A model generated the notes under the pieces. The model saw only the letters and a list, made by a program, of their open reading frames with translations, was not told where the DNA came from and did not search any database. Source: a virus (taxonomy: Duplodnaviria > Heunggongvirae > Uroviricota > Caudoviricetes). From it: 11,120 bases of DNA. A program made the position numbers and the translations under genes. Positions 868 to 10,848 of the stretch are shown here, piece by piece (positions within the stretch are counted from its first letter, which is position 1; the number at the start of each line of letters is the position of its first letter). Location: the IMG/VR virus record IMGVR_UViG_2675903255_000012; one strand, given 5' to 3'.

Positions 868-1560
868 TTAATTATGTCTCTTAAGGGTTTGCGACTGACT
901 GATTAAGACCTTTCCAAAGACCATGAATCGGTGTTCGTTTTCGCTAGTAATTCCCCATTCACGGTAAATCTGGTTATCAGAAATCACCAGCAGTTTGTCA
1001 GGAATCATTTGAAGTCTTTTAACGTATATTTTGTCATCAAAACCAAAGACATATATACCATCACCATCAAACTGATTGATGCTGACATCAACGAAGATGA
1101 GATCTCCTGGCTCAATGGTTGGACACATACTGTCCCCACGAACGTTGATAACTTTGATGTGATTGGCTGGTCGTCCGCCGAACATTGATACAGCATTATC
1201 AGTTCTGTATTCGATGGCATGAATCACATCAATGACATCACCGCCCTGGATAAGGCCATTTCCCGCACTGGCACTGATATCCAGCATTTCAATACGGAAC
1301 ACATCCTTCACCTGCGCAACATCCTCATTATTACTGTTTTTATATACAGTATTACTTTTGTGGGCAGAGGTAAAGAGATCAGCAATATCAACACCTAAGC
1401 TCTTGGCAATATTACTCAGTGTTTGTTCGGTAAATTGTTTTTGCTTACCCGTTTCTAAGCGCGAGATGTTCGCCGCATCTACTCCTATCGCTTCAGCGAG
1501 ATCGGCGATTTTCATGTTCTTCGCTTGGCGAAGTTGTCTGACTCGGTTTCCTATGTTCAT
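868..1560 (-). CDS. cI: Prophage repressor cI (N-terminal HTH, C-terminal S24 LexA-like autopeptidase domain)
   Basis: N-terminal XRE-type HTH (KIADLAEAIGVDAANISRLETGK), candidate Ala-Gly cleavage region (SASAGNG), and S24 catalytic motifs (GDSMCPTI…, downstream KR). Divergent from cro. ATG sits directly after a promoter-like TTGCTT-N17-TGTAAT on the minus strand, so a leaderless mRNA as in lambda pRM is possible. Confidence 0.88.
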   Translation of the reverse strand: MNIGNRVRQLRQAKNMKIADLAEAIGVDAANISRLETGKQKQFTEQTLSNIAKSLGVDIADLFTSAHKSNTVYKNSNNEDVAQVKDVFRIEMLDISASAGNGLIQGGDVIDVIHAIEYRTDNAVSMFGGRPANHIKVINVRGDSMCPTIEPGDLIFVDVSINQFDGDGIYVFGFDDKIYVKRLQMIPDKLLVISDNQIYREWGITSENEHRFMVFGKVLISQSQTLKRHN

Positions 1561-1657
1561 GCGTTTATTACATTTCTTTATTGCGTGATAAGCAAATCAA
1601 CTTGCGCAAAATAATTGCGTGAAATAACATGCATAACGCGCAATATTTGGAGGGCGT
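1561..1657. promoter_or_regulatory. cI-cro divergent control region (OR-like): operator TTGCGTGATAAGCAA at 1581-1595 plus TTGCG/CGCAA half-sites at 1602-1609, 1615-1619, 1638-1642; candidate pR TTGCGC(1602)-N17-TAACAT(1625)
   Basis: Palindromic 15-mer matching the TTGCG-N5-NGCAA pattern of the 777-813 repeats; TTGCGCAA 8-bp palindrome; divergent genes on both sides. Confidence 0.55.
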
Positions 1658-1918
1658 ATGCAATCACCATTACGAAATGTGCGTAAGGCGCATGGTTTCA
1701 CTTTGCAGCATGTTGCTGCGGGTGTTCAAGTCAATCCAGCGACGTTGAGTCGTATTGAGAGGCTGGAGCAGATTCCATCTATCGAGCTTGCAGAACGTTT
1801 AGCCAATTTTTTTAAGGGTGAAGTCAGCGAAATGCAGATTCTTTATCCGGCACGTTTTCAATCTAGCCAAAACCAGAATGGGTTTAAACCACAGGAACAG
1901 GAGGTGAACCGTGGGTAA
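1658..1918 (+). CDS. cro: Cro-like HTH regulator
   Basis: Small protein with HTH (FTLQHVAAGVQVNPATLSRIE), divergent from cI, first gene of the rightward operon; GGAGG upstream of the ATG. Confidence 0.75.
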   Translation: MQSPLRNVRKAHGFTLQHVAAGVQVNPATLSRIERLEQIPSIELAERLANFFKGEVSEMQILYPARFQSSQNQNGFKPQEQEVNRG

Positions 1919-5620: not shown

Positions 5621-6430
5621 ATGAATAATCTGATGGTCATTGATGGTATTGAAGTTCGTCGTGATGCTTATGGGCGTTACAGCCTGAACGATCTGCATCG
5701 CGCAGCAGTAGCATCTGGTGCAAATGCCAGAACCAAGGAGCCGGGAAAGTTTCTTTCCAGCCAACAAACTGTTGAGCTTGTTCATGAATTGACCAACACC
5801 CAGAATTTGGGTGTTGACCCGGTGAGTGTGATTCATGGGGGAAATGAACGGGGAACGTATGTCTGCAAGGAACTGGTGTATGCCTATGCAATGTGGATCA
5901 GCCCGTCATTCCATCTGAAGGTGATCCGTACTTTCGATATGGTAACCAGCGCACCGGAAAAATTATCCGGACAGGCTGCTGACAAGATGCAGGCTGGCGT
6001 GATCCTGCTGGACTTTATGCGCCGGGAGTTAAACCTGTCTAACTCTTCAGTGCTTGGTGCCTGTCAGAAACTCCAGGAGGCTGTTGGCTTACCGAATCTG
6101 GCACCGCGCTATGCCATTGATGCTCCTGCTGACGCGCCTGATGGCTCAAGCCGCCCCACGCTATCATTGAGTGCACTGCTGAAGCAGTATGGTATCCGCC
6201 TGACAGCTAATCAGGCATATCACCAGATGGCGAAGCTGGGGATCGTTGAACAACGTGAACGATACAGCCGCACTGCGATTAACAACATCAAAAAATTCTG
6301 GTCGCTGACAGCGAAAGGCTGCATGTTCGGCAAGAACATCACCAGTCCCGCAAATCCGCGCGAGACGCAGCCGCATTTCTTCGAATCCCGATTCCCTGAG
6401 CTGTTAAAGCTGCTCGATACCGTTCATTGA
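5621..6430 (+). CDS. KilA-N domain protein (antirepressor-like DNA-binding protein)
   Basis: N-terminal KilA-N-like region (IDGIEVRRDAYGRYSLNDLHRA… YAYAMWISPSFHLKVIRTF); AAGAGGAG SD 9 nt upstream of the ATG. Confidence 0.7.
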   Translation: MNNLMVIDGIEVRRDAYGRYSLNDLHRAAVASGANARTKEPGKFLSSQQTVELVHELTNTQNLGVDPVSVIHGGNERGTYVCKELVYAYAMWISPSFHLKVIRTFDMVTSAPEKLSGQAADKMQAGVILLDFMRRELNLSNSSVLGACQKLQEAVGLPNLAPRYAIDAPADAPDGSSRPTLSLSALLKQYGIRLTANQAYHQMAKLGIVEQRERYSRTAINNIKKFWSLTAKGCMFGKNITSPANPRETQPHFFESRFPELLKLLDTVH

Positions 6431-7440: not shown

Positions 7441-8193
7441 ATGAACTTTGAAGCCTTACCGAAATATTACTCCCCAAAATCTCCAAAATTGAGCGATGAC
7501 GCACCGGCGACAGGCTCTGGTGGTTTAACAATTACGGATGTAATGGCTGCGCAGGGGATGGTGCAGTCGAAAGCACCGCTTGGGTTTGCCTTATTCCTGG
7601 CAAAAGTTGGTGTTCAGGATCCTCAGTTTGCGATTGAAGGTCTGCTCAATTACGCGATGGCACTGGATAACCCGACATTGAACAAATTGAGTGAAGAAAC
7701 CCGGCTACAGATCATTCCTTACCTTGTGAATTTTGCCTTTGCTGATTATTCCAGGTCTGCGGCAAGTAAGGCTCGCTGTGAGCATTGTGCTGGTACTGGA
7801 TTTCATGATGTATTGCGCGAGGTGGTGAAACACTCCAGAAGCGGGGAATCTGTTATCAAGGAAGAGTGGGTGAAGGAACTGTGTCAGCATTGTCATGGTA
7901 AGGGAGAAGTCAGCACAGCGTGCAGAGGGTGTAAGGGTAAAGGTATTGTCCTGGATGAAAAAAGAACCAGGCTTCATGGCACGCCTGTTTATAAGGTTTG
8001 TGGGCGTTGCAATGGAAACCGGTTTAGCCGTTTACCAACCACACTGGCGCGGCTTCATGTCCAGAAGCTGGTACCAGACCTGACGGATTATCAGTGGTAC
8101 AAAGGATATGCAGATGTCATTGATAAACTGGTTACAAAGTGCTGGCAGGAAGAAGCGTATGCTGAGACACAATTGAGGAAAGTGACGAGATGA
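7441..8193 (+). CDS. Late-gene antitermination protein Q (phage 82/Qin QuuQ-like)
   Basis: 250 aa with Cys-rich zinc-binding motifs (CEHCAGTG…CQHCHGKGE…CRGCKGKG…CGRCNGN); followed within 60 bp by a strong promoter and a short-transcript terminator, the pR'/tR' arrangement. Confidence 0.8.
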   Translation: MNFEALPKYYSPKSPKLSDDAPATGSGGLTITDVMAAQGMVQSKAPLGFALFLAKVGVQDPQFAIEGLLNYAMALDNPTLNKLSEETRLQIIPYLVNFAFADYSRSAASKARCEHCAGTGFHDVLREVVKHSRSGESVIKEEWVKELCQHCHGKGEVSTACRGCKGKGIVLDEKRTRLHGTPVYKVCGRCNGNRFSRLPTTLARLHVQKLVPDLTDYQWYKGYADVIDKLVTKCWQEEAYAETQLRKVTR

Positions 8194-8224
8194 ATGATTT
8201 TCGACGAAAATGGCGACATGATGC

Positions 8225-8253
8225 TTGCATTTTTCAAAAAAAATGGATAATAT
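8225..8253 (+). promoter_or_regulatory. Late promoter pR'-like (TTGCAT-N17-TAATAT), presumed site of Q engagement
   Basis: Near-consensus sigma70 hexamers with 17-bp spacer, just downstream of Q and upstream of a terminator. Confidence 0.6.
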
Positions 8254-8301
8254 TTTCTCAATGATAGGCATTGTGTGTCCGGCTTTAATAAAAAGTAGAA
8301 A

Positions 8302-8327
8302 ACCCGCTGATGTGCGGGTTTTTTTTC
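8302..8327 (+). terminator. tR'-like rho-independent terminator
   Basis: ACCCGC-TGATGT-GCGGGT hairpin followed by an 8-T run. Confidence 0.75.
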
Positions 8328-8347
8328 GGAATTTTAGATGTGTGGCA

Positions 8348-8377
8348 TTGAAATGGTATTCGGCGAGTAGGTAGAAT
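8348..8377 (+). promoter_or_regulatory. Candidate autonomous promoter of the cargo cassette (TTGAAA-N18-TAGAAT)
   Basis: Sigma70-like hexamers located between tR' and the cargo ORF. Confidence 0.45.
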
Positions 8378-8404
8378 TTAAACTTTCGTCTCGTCTGGAT
8401 CGAC

Positions 8405-8947
8405 ATGATGTTTCAAGCCTTCCAAACAGCAGTATTTAAAAATGTTGCAGAGTATTTAAAAGGGCGCTTCCCTCATAAGTCGTTAGGGCTCGTATATGCC
8501 GACGAGCTGGTACTAAAAGATATGGAGTTCCTCAAGGCTAACAATAAACTGCGGTGGGATCCCGGACTAAAGTCGCGAGTGTTTATGGATATGATGGAAG
8601 AACACCCGATAAAACTAGTTGTTTATTATCGTGGGGAGCCTATTGGATTTGCATTTGGGTGTTACTGTAAGCCGAAAAATGCGGTGCATATTTGCTGGAT
8701 GGAAAAACGTAATGATGCACATGAAGACCTAGACCATCAGATGCTTGGTATCGTTTTGGATTGCTTCTCTGCATATGCACGATTTCTGAACCTTCAGGGT
8801 GAATCTATTGATTCGATAGCTTTAGTTAGTCCAGTTGATGGGGCAATAAGATACTATACTGAAAGTGGTTTTGAGTACATTGCTGATTACGAACGAGGTG
8901 GTTGCGCAATGGTGCTTAGGAGCGTTTTACCTAACCAATCAGTGTGA
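8405..8947 (+). CDS. Cargo (moron) protein, 180 aa, GNAT-fold-like putative acyltransferase; function unknown
   Basis: AT-rich with atypical codon usage compared with flanking phage genes; C-terminal region resembles the GNAT motif (…SIALVSPVDGAIRYYTESGFEYIADYE…) and β-strand-like KLVVYYRGEPIGFAFG, but the canonical R/Q-x-x-G-x-G/A acetyl-CoA motif is not evident. Confidence 0.45.
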   Translation: MMFQAFQTAVFKNVAEYLKGRFPHKSLGLVYADELVLKDMEFLKANNKLRWDPGLKSRVFMDMMEEHPIKLVVYYRGEPIGFAFGCYCKPKNAVHICWMEKRNDAHEDLDHQMLGIVLDCFSAYARFLNLQGESIDSIALVSPVDGAIRYYTESGFEYIADYERGGCAMVLRSVLPNQSV

Positions 8948-9138
8948 GTTAGATTCTTAATTTCTCCAGAATCATTACAAAAGTATTGAAAACCTCTTTT
9001 AGTTGATGCAATCTGGATCCACACAAAGCACACACAAAATGTACTACGCTTTACTTTATACATCTTCAGGTAACAAACTTTGTTGCCTTTATGCTTCAAA
9101 GAAGCAACTACAGCTTAGTGCTGAACAAGGGGATTTTT

Positions 9139-9324
9139 ATGAAACATCATGAGCAGATAGAGATTGAGGCAGCTAAAGTCGTCGCCGAACTCTTTGCTGG
9201 CAATGCATCTCCAATGGAAACCTTTGGTATTACATGGAGTCAAACTCAGATGTTAGAGCGTAAGAATCCTGGTGTAGTGATCAAACTAGTACCGGATGAC
9301 GGTAAAAAACTTGCGTATTGCTGA
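9139..9324 (+). CDS. Small cargo protein (61 aa), hypothetical; candidate partner of the 8405-8947 gene
   Basis: AAGGGGA SD 5 nt upstream of the ATG; AT-rich; followed by a terminator; same orientation and same cassette as the GNAT-like ORF. Confidence 0.4.
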   Translation: MKHHEQIEIEAAKVVAELFAGNASPMETFGITWSQTQMLERKNPGVVIKLVPDDGKKLAYC

Positions 9325-9383
9325 TAATTTTTAAAGATTTTTTCAGCTAGAGAATCGATTATTTTACTATAAATCGCGAAGGA

Positions 9384-9410
9384 GCCCCACATATTGTGGG
9401 GCTTTTTGTT
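9384..9410 (+). terminator. Rho-independent terminator closing the cargo cassette
   Basis: GCCCCACA-TAT-TGTGGGGC hairpin followed by TTTTTGTTT. Confidence 0.7.
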
Positions 9411-9581
9411 TCATCTTAGTTAGCCGTTATTCACATTCACTACTTTGCTACTTATCCACTGTAAAAATAAATTGTGAATTATTTTGTGGCTTATTGTTAG
9501 TGTTCTATCAATTTTGTGTGTGATATTCCATTGGCGTGGTTATTATCTGTGCATCGCACTTAAATGTATAAAGCTCACTAG

Positions 9582-9956
9582 TTGAGACAATCCTACCACC
9601 AGTTGGTGGTATCTCATGATTCACTGAATTGCAAATCTTCTGAATTGCTGGATGAGTTTAAATCTCACCGGCGCTATTTCTCCGTATCAGTCTCCGTGCC
9701 TTATACCGATGTCAGGACGCATAAGCCCGTTCAGTTCTACCCGGGTAAACATCCGTGCGAGAAACCGGCGGATATGCTCAGGCAAATAATCAATGCCAGT
9801 AGTCGACCTGGTGATCTGGTTGCTGATTTCTTTATGGGATTCGGTTCCACAATAAAAGCAGCAATGGCGCTGGGGCGTCGGGCGTTAGGTGTTTAACTTG
9901 AGTCAGAGCGGTTTAATCAGACGGTGAAAGAGGTAAGTGAACTGGTGGGGAAATAA
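9582..9956 (+). pseudogene. 3' remnant of an N6/N4 DNA methyltransferase gene (C-terminal motifs only), interrupted by an in-frame TAA at 9894
   Basis: …GKHPCEKPADMLRQIINASSRPGDLVADFFMGFGSTIKAAMALGRRALGV carries the HP-x-x-KP and FxGxG AdoMet-binding motifs that sit at the C-terminus of beta-class MTases; no DPPY-type N-terminal half upstream (AT-rich non-coding DNA). The frame continues protein-like after the TAA (LESERFNQTVKEVSELVGK). Confidence 0.55.
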
Positions 9957-10032: not shown

Positions 10033-10368
10033 ATGCCTCATAACCCAAATACCTGGCCGGACTGGCTGGAGTTGTTTCAGAGCTGGTGGCGTGGAGACAC
10101 ACCGCTGGGTGCAGTGATTATGTCGATCGTTATGGCTGGTTTGCGCATCGCCTATTTTGGCGGTGGTGGTGGCTGGAAGCGAAAAACGCTCGAGATTTTG
10201 CTATGTGGCGCTCTGACGCTGACCTTTGCATCCGCTCTTGAGTATGTCGGATGGCCTAAATCACTTTCTGTTGCCATTGGTGGTGGGGTGGGGCTGATCG
10301 GTGTCGATGCTATTCGTGGGGCTGCAATGCGAGTAATCGGTAACAAATTTGGTGGCTCTAAGGAGTAA
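10033..10368 (+). CDS. S: Class I holin (lambda S family); start codon tentative
   Basis: Three hydrophobic segments and a charged C-terminus, alignable by eye to lambda S (GAVIMSIVMAGLRIAYFGGGG versus GAILAFAMAYLRGRYNGG); immediately upstream of R. Confidence 0.7.
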   Translation: MPHNPNTWPDWLELFQSWWRGDTPLGAVIMSIVMAGLRIAYFGGGGGWKRKTLEILLCGALTLTFASALEYVGWPKSLSVAIGGGVGLIGVDAIRGAAMRVIGNKFGGSKE

Positions 10369-10371
10369 TTT

Positions 10372-10848
10372 ATGCAGGTACTAAATTCCCAGCGTAAAGC
10401 TTTCCTTGATATGGTGGCTTGGTCAGAAGGAACGGATAACGGACGACAACCGACACGTAACCACGGTTATGACGTTATTGTCGGTGGTGAACTCTTCACT
10501 GATTACTCCGATCACCCTCGCAAACTTGTCACGCTAAACCCCAAACTCAAATCAACAGCCGCCGGACGTTACCAGCTTCTTTCACGTTGGTGGGATGCTT
10601 ACCGTAAACAGCTTGGTTTGAAAGACTTCTCCCCCAAAAGCCAGGACGCTGTGGCATTGCAGCAGATTAAAGAACGTGGCGCTTTACCGATGATTGATCG
10701 TGGTGATATTCGTCAGGCTATCGACCGTTGCAGCAATATCTGGGCTTCGTTGCCGGGCGCTGGTTACGGTCAGTTCGAGCATAAGGCTGACAGCCTGATT
10801 GCAAAATTCAAAGAAGCAGGCGGAACGGTCAGAGAGATTGAGGTATGA
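10372..10848 (+). CDS. R: Endolysin R (lambda-type lytic transglycosylase)
   Basis: 158 aa, near-identical to the lambda R sequence as I remember it (…[57 protein letters not shown]…). Confidence 0.93.

Follow-up and report, generated by a model that had tools for sequence, protein, structure and literature searches.

A portable two-gene moron with its own predicted transcription signals in the Q-to-lysis slot of a lambdoid Escherichia coli prophage

An 11,120-nucleotide (nt) stretch of virus DNA assigned to the Caudoviricetes (IMG/VR record IMGVR_UViG_2675903255_000012; 'the window' below means the whole of this stretch) carries a cassette of two small genes between gene Q and the lysis genes. 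The two open reading frames (ORFs), ORF1 and ORF2, encode proteins of 180 and 61 amino acids. As judged by comparison with related loci, which are cited by L numbers where they have to be told apart, the cassette is a portable two-gene moron with its own predicted transcription signals. What the pair does for its carrier is a matter of graded likelihood: we tentatively read it as a toxin-antitoxin-like module of effector and antidote, probably concerned with phage exclusion or prophage stabilisation, a reading that is possible rather than probable. The positions of the two genes, first read from the bare sequence, coincide with two RefSeq coding sequences, and the cassette is laid out as follows.

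8348-8377, plus strand: P1, sigma70-like promoter of ORF1 (TTGAAA-N18-TAGAAT, 10 of 12 consensus positions).
8405-8947, plus strand: ORF1, 180 amino acids, matching RefSeq coding sequence WP_021519681.1 ('hypothetical protein') in an identical O157:H7 prophage, and phrog_11949 ('unknown function').
8986-9012, plus strand: candidate promoter P2 for ORF2, or an operator (TTGAAA-N15-TGCAAT, with TG in front).
9068-9098, plus strand: conserved hairpin in the spacer and ORF2 leader (stem-loop 9068-9088, weak T-rich tail).
9127-9133, plus strand: conserved Shine-Dalgarno sequence of ORF2, AAGGGGA.
9139-9324, plus strand: ORF2, 61 amino acids, matching RefSeq coding sequence WP_000680348.1 ('hypothetical protein') and phrog_11292 ('unknown function').
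9379-9412, plus strand: closing intrinsic terminator (13-pair stem at 9379-9407 with six G-C pairs, then the T-run TTTTTGTTT).

The predicted features of the cassette are those that define a moron: a promoter and a terminator of its own, a deviant composition, and insertion between otherwise adjacent genes. As the original prediction had held, the cassette is richer in AT than the genes around it, with a GC content of 0.401 over 8331-9410 against 0.502 in the remainder of the window, and with GC at third codon positions (GC3) of 0.38 in ORF1 and 0.37 in ORF2 against 0.46-0.67 in Q, the holin, the lysozyme and the early genes. The cI-like and cro-like genes of the window (868-1918) are likewise AT-rich, at a GC3 of 0.41-0.42, so low GC is not unique to the cassette in this phage. 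The promoter is present at the place where it had been proposed, and its support comes from related loci, not from its own match score. A scan of the region gave two such sites against 5.0 expected from shuffled sequences, which means that P1 by itself does not stand above chance, whereas 13 of 18 distinct loci have a sigma70-like site that passes these criteria 45-80 nt ahead of the ORF1 start, the frequency at random positions being 2.8%. The remaining five loci have weaker or extended -10 forms at the equivalent position, and the equivalent of P1 in L042 matches 11 of 12 consensus positions. At the other end, a hairpin with a T-run lies no more than 80 nt past the ORF2 stop in all 18 loci, against 4.7% at random. 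The cassette does possess the terminator that had been claimed for it, with its stem at 9379-9407 and the T-run beyond, rather than at 9384-9410. In L022 and L024, DNA similarity to the window does not extend beyond a point about 20-35 nt ahead of the ORF1 start on one side and a few nucleotides past the ORF2 stop on the other; on this comparison the flanking promoter and terminator are kept in function and not in sequence.

Regulatory sites around P1 differ between lineages. The P1 region of the window contains no inverted repeat with arms of at least 6 nt and no operator-like repeat, and palindromes lie just past the -10 in some lineages (L002, L003, L036). A Fur box was considered at P1 and rejected: the window scores 9/19, below the commonest background scores of 10-11, and only Photorhabdus-type loci have such a site. 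In these (L003 at about 5955-5969, with equivalents in L004 and L032) a Fur-box-like sequence overlaps the ORF1 promoter and scores 15-16/19, where 0.16% of the background scores 15 or more; the L003 site is a perfect 7-1-7 palindrome, TGATAATAATTATCA. It hints at iron regulation, in the Photorhabdus-type lineage only.

Comparative mobility supports a self-contained cassette far better than the single match at P1. Within the Q-to-lysis slot the pair stands behind Q genes of three families (PF03589, PF06530 and CHP02642-type) and before holins of different families. It is also found in Erwinia, where it separates the lambda-type tail genes K and I; in Citrobacter-type prophages, where its neighbours are the host gene mtfA and the integrase (the int/att end); and, in one further copy, next to a cI repressor. 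A branch with 34% identity occupies a P2-like prophage, between the replication gene A/Ogr-type activator and the portal gene. At L034 (2775-5881) a distant pair lies beside a umuD/umuC-like pair (Peptidase_S24 and IMS), with both pairs oriented against the Q-like and lysis genes; expression at this locus must therefore be independent of Q read-through. These positions indicate that the two genes are passed on and change place as a pair in temperate phages of Enterobacterales, lambdoid, P2-like and others. The original prediction of a self-contained unit of promoter, genes and terminator is thus borne out by its movement as a unit among unrelated slots and phage types, and the slot named for it, between the terminator tR' and the lysis genes, is confirmed by the location of Q, tR' (8299-8326), holin and lysozyme around the cassette.

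Selection has acted on both genes. Compared with their relatives, ORF1 and ORF2 each have a dN/dS of about 0.04-0.05, a mark of strong purifying selection, and their dN values rise together across relatives (ORF1/ORF2 0.056/0.051, 0.118/0.076, 0.255/0.261 and 0.337/0.282). An ORF2 homologue follows ORF1 on the same strand at every one of 31 ORF1 loci drawn from genomes and IMG/VR. When 21 distinct loci were compared, all had a small ORF 92-226 nt past the ORF1 homologue, which tBLASTN identified as an ORF2 homologue in 20. Five distant lineages, with 20-34% identity to ORF1, have an ORF of 54-61 amino acids 92-165 nt downstream; four of these ORFs are recognisable as ORF2 homologues by tBLASTN or alignment, and the fifth, in L034, is faintly similar. 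A lack of conservation or co-occurrence of ORF2, which had been named beforehand as one part of what would speak against the cassette, was therefore not found. The named organisms in both protein families all belong to Enterobacterales, and the cassette occurs also in prophages of Enterobacter, Citrobacter, Cronobacter, Erwinia, Proteus, Morganella, Photorhabdus and others.

These data bear directly on the plainest explanation of the cassette, that it is filler, decaying or selfish, in which two ORFs have arisen by chance or are degenerating within an AT-rich scar of recombination. In the flank a methyltransferase gene is indeed cut short (9582-9896) and the non-coding DNA is AT-rich, and the family is small: an ORF1 profile search of 1.84 billion representative proteins returned only 36, all single-domain and about 175-197 amino acids long. 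Filler would not be expected to show a dN/dS of 0.04-0.05 in both genes, a conserved ribosome-binding site, promoter and terminator, or a confident fold prediction for ORF1. In addition, all places of at least 99% identity in E. coli (98 genomes) cover at least 80% of a 1.4-kb query, and conservation of the pair extends across genera, to identities as low as about 20%. The filler reading is already contradicted by the selection and conservation data, and we give it next to no credence.

The association is asymmetric. ORF1 without ORF2 was not found among the loci retrieved. Viewed from ORF2, ORF1 lies upstream in 29 of 32 IMG/VR loci, and ORF2-like genes without ORF1 occur in at least five contexts, all of them Xenorhabdus-type and in the Q-to-lysis slot; they lie behind a Tad2-like gene, between HigBA and a ParE module, behind a 104-amino-acid gene and behind a YafO toxin gene.

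The content of the Xenorhabdus-type slots is varied. In L050 (2348-3918) HigB/HigA and a ParE toxin with a helix-turn-helix (HTH) partner surround the solitary ORF2-like gene, and in L083 (1321-2674) the surroundings are a YafO toxin gene behind a 202-amino-acid gene. In L041 (3211-4162, Xenorhabdus bovienii) the Q-to-lysis slot holds a gene for a 223-amino-acid Tad2-like protein (PF11195, the anti-Thoeris family) with DUF7823; after it come a terminator homologous to the post-ORF2 terminator of L032 and then a truncated ORF2 remnant. The sequence arrangement in L041 suggests cargo replacement within the slot.

ORF1 is, by its predicted structure, a divergent GNAT-fold protein that falls in no characterised acetyltransferase family. 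The AlphaFold2 model built from a 28-sequence alignment (pLDDT 86, pTM 0.84) has the exact GNAT order of strands and helices, beta1-alpha1-alpha2-beta2-beta3-beta4-alpha3-beta5-alpha4-beta6(-beta7), behind an extra N-terminal helix. A Foldseek search of BFVD with this model returned only generic GNATs. At the sequence level no Pfam or NCBIfam family was matched at E <= 1 and no PDB sequence match to a GNAT was found; an hhalign comparison with RimI aligned only beta5-alpha4-beta6, placing Y151 on the catalytic Y115 at an insignificant probability. Homologues of ORF1 form 28 clusters in 5.8 billion proteins. Across the whole family Y74 and G85 alone are invariant; Q7, D39, P143 and, at the end of beta4, E100 come close to it.

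The cofactor site departs from the GNAT pattern, as the original prediction had noted when it reported no clear acetyl-CoA loop. Strand beta4 spans residues 93-101 and helix alpha4 residues 145-153, the latter with Y150 and Y151. The beta4-alpha3 loop, where the pyrophosphate of acetyl-CoA would be held by motif A (Q/RxxGxG/A), reads R102-N-D-A-H-E107 and is non-canonical. This loop and the acidic D-L-D-H-Q that follows form the most conserved stretch of the close family, and the corresponding sequences in distant members are unrelated to it. A motif A at Q112-x-x-G115, obtained by extrapolating a constant offset from the RimI alignment, is not claimed; these residues lie inside the predicted helix alpha3. 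The enzymatic competence of ORF1 is uncertain.

The known toxins of GNAT fold are the obvious comparison. In TacAT, AtaRT and KacAT systems the GNAT acetylates aminoacyl-tRNA and is held in check by an antitoxin, and the cassette resembles TacA-TacT, AtaR-AtaT and KacA-KacT in that the gene of a GNAT-fold protein is tied strictly to that of a small partner, both on a mobile element, with a folded N-terminal part and a disordered C-terminal tail in the partner. The resemblance does not extend further. Toxins of the TacT/AtaT type score no better against ORF1 than dozens of unrelated GNATs, and there is no sequence match to Pfam acetyltransferase or DUF1778 models; significant similarity is lacking even for Acetyltransf_1 (E 0.11, 2/39). 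Motif A is absent. In the cassette the GNAT gene comes first, the reverse of the usual order, and is separated from its partner by 191 nt in the window and 92-226 nt among relatives, with a promoter-like element in the spacer; the partner has no DUF1778, RHH or HTH. ORF1 is acidic, with an isoelectric point (pI) of 5.95, whereas tRNA-binding toxins are basic. The cassette fails the hallmarks of GNAT-type toxin-antitoxin systems that can be tested on sequence, namely partner type, gene order and adjacency. A tRNA-acetylating toxin, one of the options raised at first, is disfavoured by the acidity of ORF1 and the nature of its partner, and a true toxin-antitoxin system of this kind is very improbable.

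ORF2 has no Pfam family and no structural or sequence relative of known function. Its start at ATG 9139 is backed by AAGGGGA and by homologues; a 77-amino-acid version starting at 9091, called mechanically, has no support. The predicted structure (pLDDT 79.5) consists of helices at residues 4-18, 25-28 and 33-42 followed by a disordered C-terminal tail that ends in Cys, and the protein is mildly acidic (pI 6.04). Its homologues form 48 clusters and share the core F-A-x4-P-M-E-x-F-G-x2-W-x6-E-R-x2-P. A folded N-terminal part with a disordered tail is the usual build of type II antitoxins. The segment FGITWSQTQMLER looks by eye like an XRE helix-turn-helix, and a role for ORF2 as an HTH regulator was rejected: hhalign against the Cro-like protein of the window gives a probability of 0.2%, and none of 45 family members matches an HTH Pfam model. 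With no family at E <= 1 for either protein in PADLOC-DB v2 or, as above, in Pfam or NCBIfam, and with both PHROGs of 'unknown function', the earlier placing of the two proteins outside any characterised family holds.

The tail of ORF2 raises a different explanation, a two-subunit or enzyme-substrate conversion function. ORF1 would acylate a Lys or Cys in the tail, or ORF2 would be a specificity subunit, with the product or holoenzyme serving to modify a host protein or to detoxify an antibiotic or microcin-like compound; the outcome would be a trait of lysogenic conversion and not phage immunity. The tail almost always has Lys together with Cys near the C-terminus, resistance and competition genes are neighbours at some loci (CAT in L004, an S-type pyocin in L031), and separate promoters would be compatible with a partner made in stoichiometric amounts. 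The same tail is also the least conserved part of ORF2, and its terminal Cys is absent in family members P0097 and P0099 and in the ORF2-like ORFs of L033 and L049. The cofactor loop of ORF1 is non-canonical, nothing in the gene context indicates a particular substrate, and the existence of orphan copies on the ORF2 side suits an antidote better than a substrate. A conversion function of this type is unlikely.

The spacer between the two genes contains a second promoter-like element and a hairpin, neither of which formed part of the original prediction. The P2-like element has one match in the window against 0.10 expected by chance, and its columns are invariant in seven aligned spacers that are otherwise divergent. 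Counterparts at distant loci read TTGATG-N15-TGCAAT and TTGAAA-N15-TGCATA, with near-consensus TTGACC-N17-TAGAAT and TATAAT forms as well. Downstream of it, the 9068-9088 hairpin shows compensatory changes in three of its nine stem pairs (five sequences), and the leader 9020-9141 folds with a z-score of -2.7. The spacer hairpin is a full intrinsic terminator in L006, in L003/L004/L032 and in L005/L031; in L024 a hairpin with a T-run can be read by eye, which the terminator script did not score. From the conserved P2-like element, the hairpin and AAGGGGA, it is probable that ORF2 is transcribed from a promoter of its own, with a structured leader about 120 nt long. The spacer at 8986-9133 could also act as an attenuator or a small RNA.

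Predicted pairing within 8986-9133 would mask the ribosome-binding site of ORF2. The minimum-free-energy structure pairs a CAUCUU stretch with GGGGAU, and the alifold consensus instead pairs CGCUUU with AAGGGG, in columns that are invariant and hence without covariation evidence. Hidden genes at 8887-9099 (minus strand), 9003-9152 (plus) and 9246-9392 (minus) were rejected on account of stops or frameshifts in relatives, or of a similarity that is that of ORF2 in antisense.

A GNAT-fold protein behind a near-consensus promoter, followed by a small conserved gene, also invites comparison with anti-defence operons of the acr-aca type. ORF1 would then be a GNAT-fold enzyme or decoy directed against a host immune protein or signal and expressed at once on infection from a strong constitutive promoter, and ORF2 a small regulator. 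The parallel would be AcrVA5, an acetyltransferase that inactivates Cas12a. The likeness to AcrVA5 and acr-aca lies in a small GNAT-fold phage protein behind a strong predicted promoter (10/12 in the window, 11/12 in L042), in the acidity of ORF1, which it shares with many phage inhibitors, in the palindromes just past the -10 of L002, L003 and L036, and in the occurrence of ORF2-like genes downstream of other cargo, including the Tad2-like anti-Thoeris homologue of a Xenorhabdus phage, which is an aca-type recognition pattern. Other observations speak against such an operon: no HTH is detectable in 45 ORF2 members, the comparison with XRE-type Cro gave 0.2%, ORF2 is mildly acidic, and P1 of the window has no operator-like repeat. 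At L041 the Tad2-like gene and the truncated ORF2 remnant have a terminator between them and so do not form an operon. Rapid diversification is often seen in anti-defence proteins, whereas ORF1 is under strong purifying selection; and acr-aca operons described so far are compact, in contrast with the two-promoter layout of the cassette and its spacer bearing a hairpin or terminator. An acr-aca type operon is improbable on this evidence.

The reading that we put first, a toxin-antitoxin-like pair of effector and antidote, is drawn from several features taken together. An antitoxin was among the roles first offered for ORF2, beside an immunity protein or a regulator, as were defence and lysogenic conversion for the cassette. 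ORF1 is never solitary whereas ORF2 sometimes is; ORF2 has a separate promoter-like signal and a hairpin in the spacer before it; and ORF2 combines a folded N-terminal part with a disordered tail. The pair sits in cargo and defence slots, of which the Xenorhabdus one holds HigBA, ParE and YafO. The low dN/dS of both genes and the parallel course of their dN values mark them as real and co-evolving, and the functional conservation of promoter and terminator, together with the orientation of the unit against the late genes at L034, argues for autonomy. The cassette would be transcribed in the lysogen from its own promoters, and Q-modified polymerase would read through it during lytic growth. ORF1, as the effector, would be an enzyme of acyl-transfer type whose target is a protein or a small molecule and not tRNA. 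ORF2 would serve as its obligate antidote or controller; it would have a promoter of its own and the better ribosome-binding site, and would probably bind ORF1 via the disordered tail. The benefit to the lysogen would most likely be the exclusion of other phages or the stabilisation of the prophage.

Several observations weigh against an effector and antidote. Neither ORF1 nor ORF2 has a PADLOC, Pfam or NCBIfam match, and PF00583 (Acetyltransf_1) is touched by only two of 39 ORF1 family members, at E = 0.11. Motif A is missing between beta4 and alpha3, and neither the beta4-alpha3 loop nor the alpha4 tyrosine Y151 is conserved in the wider ORF1 family. The layout differs from that of known GNAT toxin-antitoxin pairs in its reversed order, its spacer and its partner, which is not DUF1778/RHH, and ORF1 is acidic in most lineages, unlike toxins that bind nucleic acids. 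The solitary Xenorhabdus-type copies of ORF2 are often truncated or mutated at otherwise invariant sites; since they look decayed, the asymmetry between the two genes may only reflect recombination within the slot. The location of the pair in P2-like prophages is likewise ambiguous. The region of P2 between gpA and the portal gene is a hotspot of anti-phage systems, and P2 hotspots also hold partition systems and cytolethal distending toxin (PMC9122126); a cargo hotspot is therefore not proof of defence. A more specific form of the effector/antidote reading is that the cassette represents a new family of phage-borne anti-phage modules, with a GNAT-fold effector that lacks the canonical loop and probably uses an unusual cofactor or target, and a novel antidote of about 60 residues with a disordered tail, produced from a promoter and structured leader of its own, the whole spreading as a moron between cargo hotspots of lambdoid, P2-like and other temperate phages of Enterobacterales. 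In that form the proposal is doubtful.

Among known morons, lambda bor and lom and the stx genes of Stx phages share with the cassette an independent transcription unit of deviant composition between conserved phage genes, and stx operons occupy the same slot downstream of pR'/tR'. Cargo in the stx slot can be expressed both from its own promoter and by Q-dependent read-through. The cargo here differs in being a predicted cytoplasmic GNAT-fold protein with a small partner, rather than a toxin or an outer-membrane protein, and the cassette differs from known morons in its two tandem promoter-like signals and its presence in at least five slots across phage types. For stx itself, PMC8065619 reports co-transcription with the late genes.

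Two further systems, TaiEcA-AtiEcA of phi80 and BstA-aba, consist of a lysogen-expressed moron gene near the Q-controlled late operon and a small counter-acting neighbour; for the cassette, both the expression and the counteraction are proposed. In phi80 the small gene (Ati) is expressed by Q read-through, and Tai and Ati bind each other (PMC11364771). Tai is a 26-kDa protein and the two phi80 genes form a divergently transcribed, non-contiguous operon, whereas the cassette genes lie on the same strand, each with a promoter-like signal. Tai/Ati was rejected as a relative for want of homology and on account of its different arrangement; a tBLASTN search with ORF1 of 50,697 phage records found one record, a prophage extracted in silico and not phi80.

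A literature search on the RefSeq accessions and on GNAT-based prophage defence found no description of the ORF1/ORF2 family, and the database entries call both proteins hypothetical. The cassette is compact (about 1.1 kb), strictly paired, strongly constrained and recurrent in hotspots of defence and toxin-antitoxin genes. Properties of this kind have pointed the way to new immune systems in the past. Should it prove to be an effector/antidote or defence module, it would comprise a GNAT-fold effector with a non-canonical cofactor site and a new type of antidote, and would be relevant to the competition between prophages in Shiga-toxigenic E. coli. If the function is instead anti-defence or conversion, a widespread O157 prophage gene pair would gain a role. 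The conserved two-promoter layout with its structured leader amounts to a directly testable regulatory model.

The carrier is well represented among sequenced strains. A 1.4-kb region around the cassette is 100% identical to a chromosomal prophage in many E. coli O157:H7 strains, and the cassette is carried by 105 of 5426 complete E. coli genomes (about 2%), many of them O157:H7, in a single copy each and in no case on a plasmid. In a RefSeq strain the prophage adjoins tRNA-Thr and proA; its early and late-control region is lambdoid, its terminase is of P27 type, its head is of HK97 type and its tail is sheathed. The features around the cassette in the window are these.

7441-8193: Q (PF03589, E = 8e-53).
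8225-8265, plus strand: pR'-like late promoter (TTGCAT at 8225-8230, N17, TAATAT at 8248-8253, then the -10-like pause element AATGAT at 8260-8265), read from the sequence and by comparison with L020.
8299-8326, plus strand: tR', a strong terminator between Q and the cassette (stem-loop 8299-8322, T-run up to 8326).
9582-9896: 3' fragment of an N6/N4 DNA methyltransferase gene, downstream of the cassette.
10033-10368: holin of the lambda family, annotated (PF05106).
10372-10848: lysozyme.

The stretch at 8225-8326 appears to be a short Q-controlled leader unit outside the cassette, and naming its terminator tR' is reasonable on the sequence. The segment 8225-8265 resembles lambda pR', which has the pause element AACGAT. 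The automated scan scored tR' on the minus strand; read directly, its stem is AAAACCCGC/GCGGGTTTT, with the Ts coming after it on the plus strand, and it looks bidirectional. L020 and L022 have a homologous layout, TATGTT..TGACATTAACGATGGGCATTG and a terminator, and these related phages carry a different Q. Transcription from pR' to tR' would yield a transcript of about 65-70 nt, possibly a prophage small RNA. A search of 8150-9650 against Rfam found no family at threshold; sub-threshold leader and small-RNA models for 8225-8326 were isrK (18.9 bits) and the Leu and Trp leaders.

The methyltransferase of the window is only the 3' third of its gene. Full-length homologues occupy the Q-to-holin slot of Photorhabdus L003 (4587-5669) and of the Xenorhabdus phages L050 and L052; in L003 and L050 the methyltransferase gene precedes the cassette, and in L052 it follows the ORF2-like gene. 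The varying order suggests that the two cargos have been shuffled independently, the copy in the window being truncated. At the left edge of the window, 14-478 on the minus strand is a transposase fragment of an insertion sequence-type element, presumably IS3-like. In the reference O157 prophage L001, the cI-like repressor is flanked on that side by early genes of yfd type; the prophage copy in the window would therefore be interrupted or rearranged on its left side.

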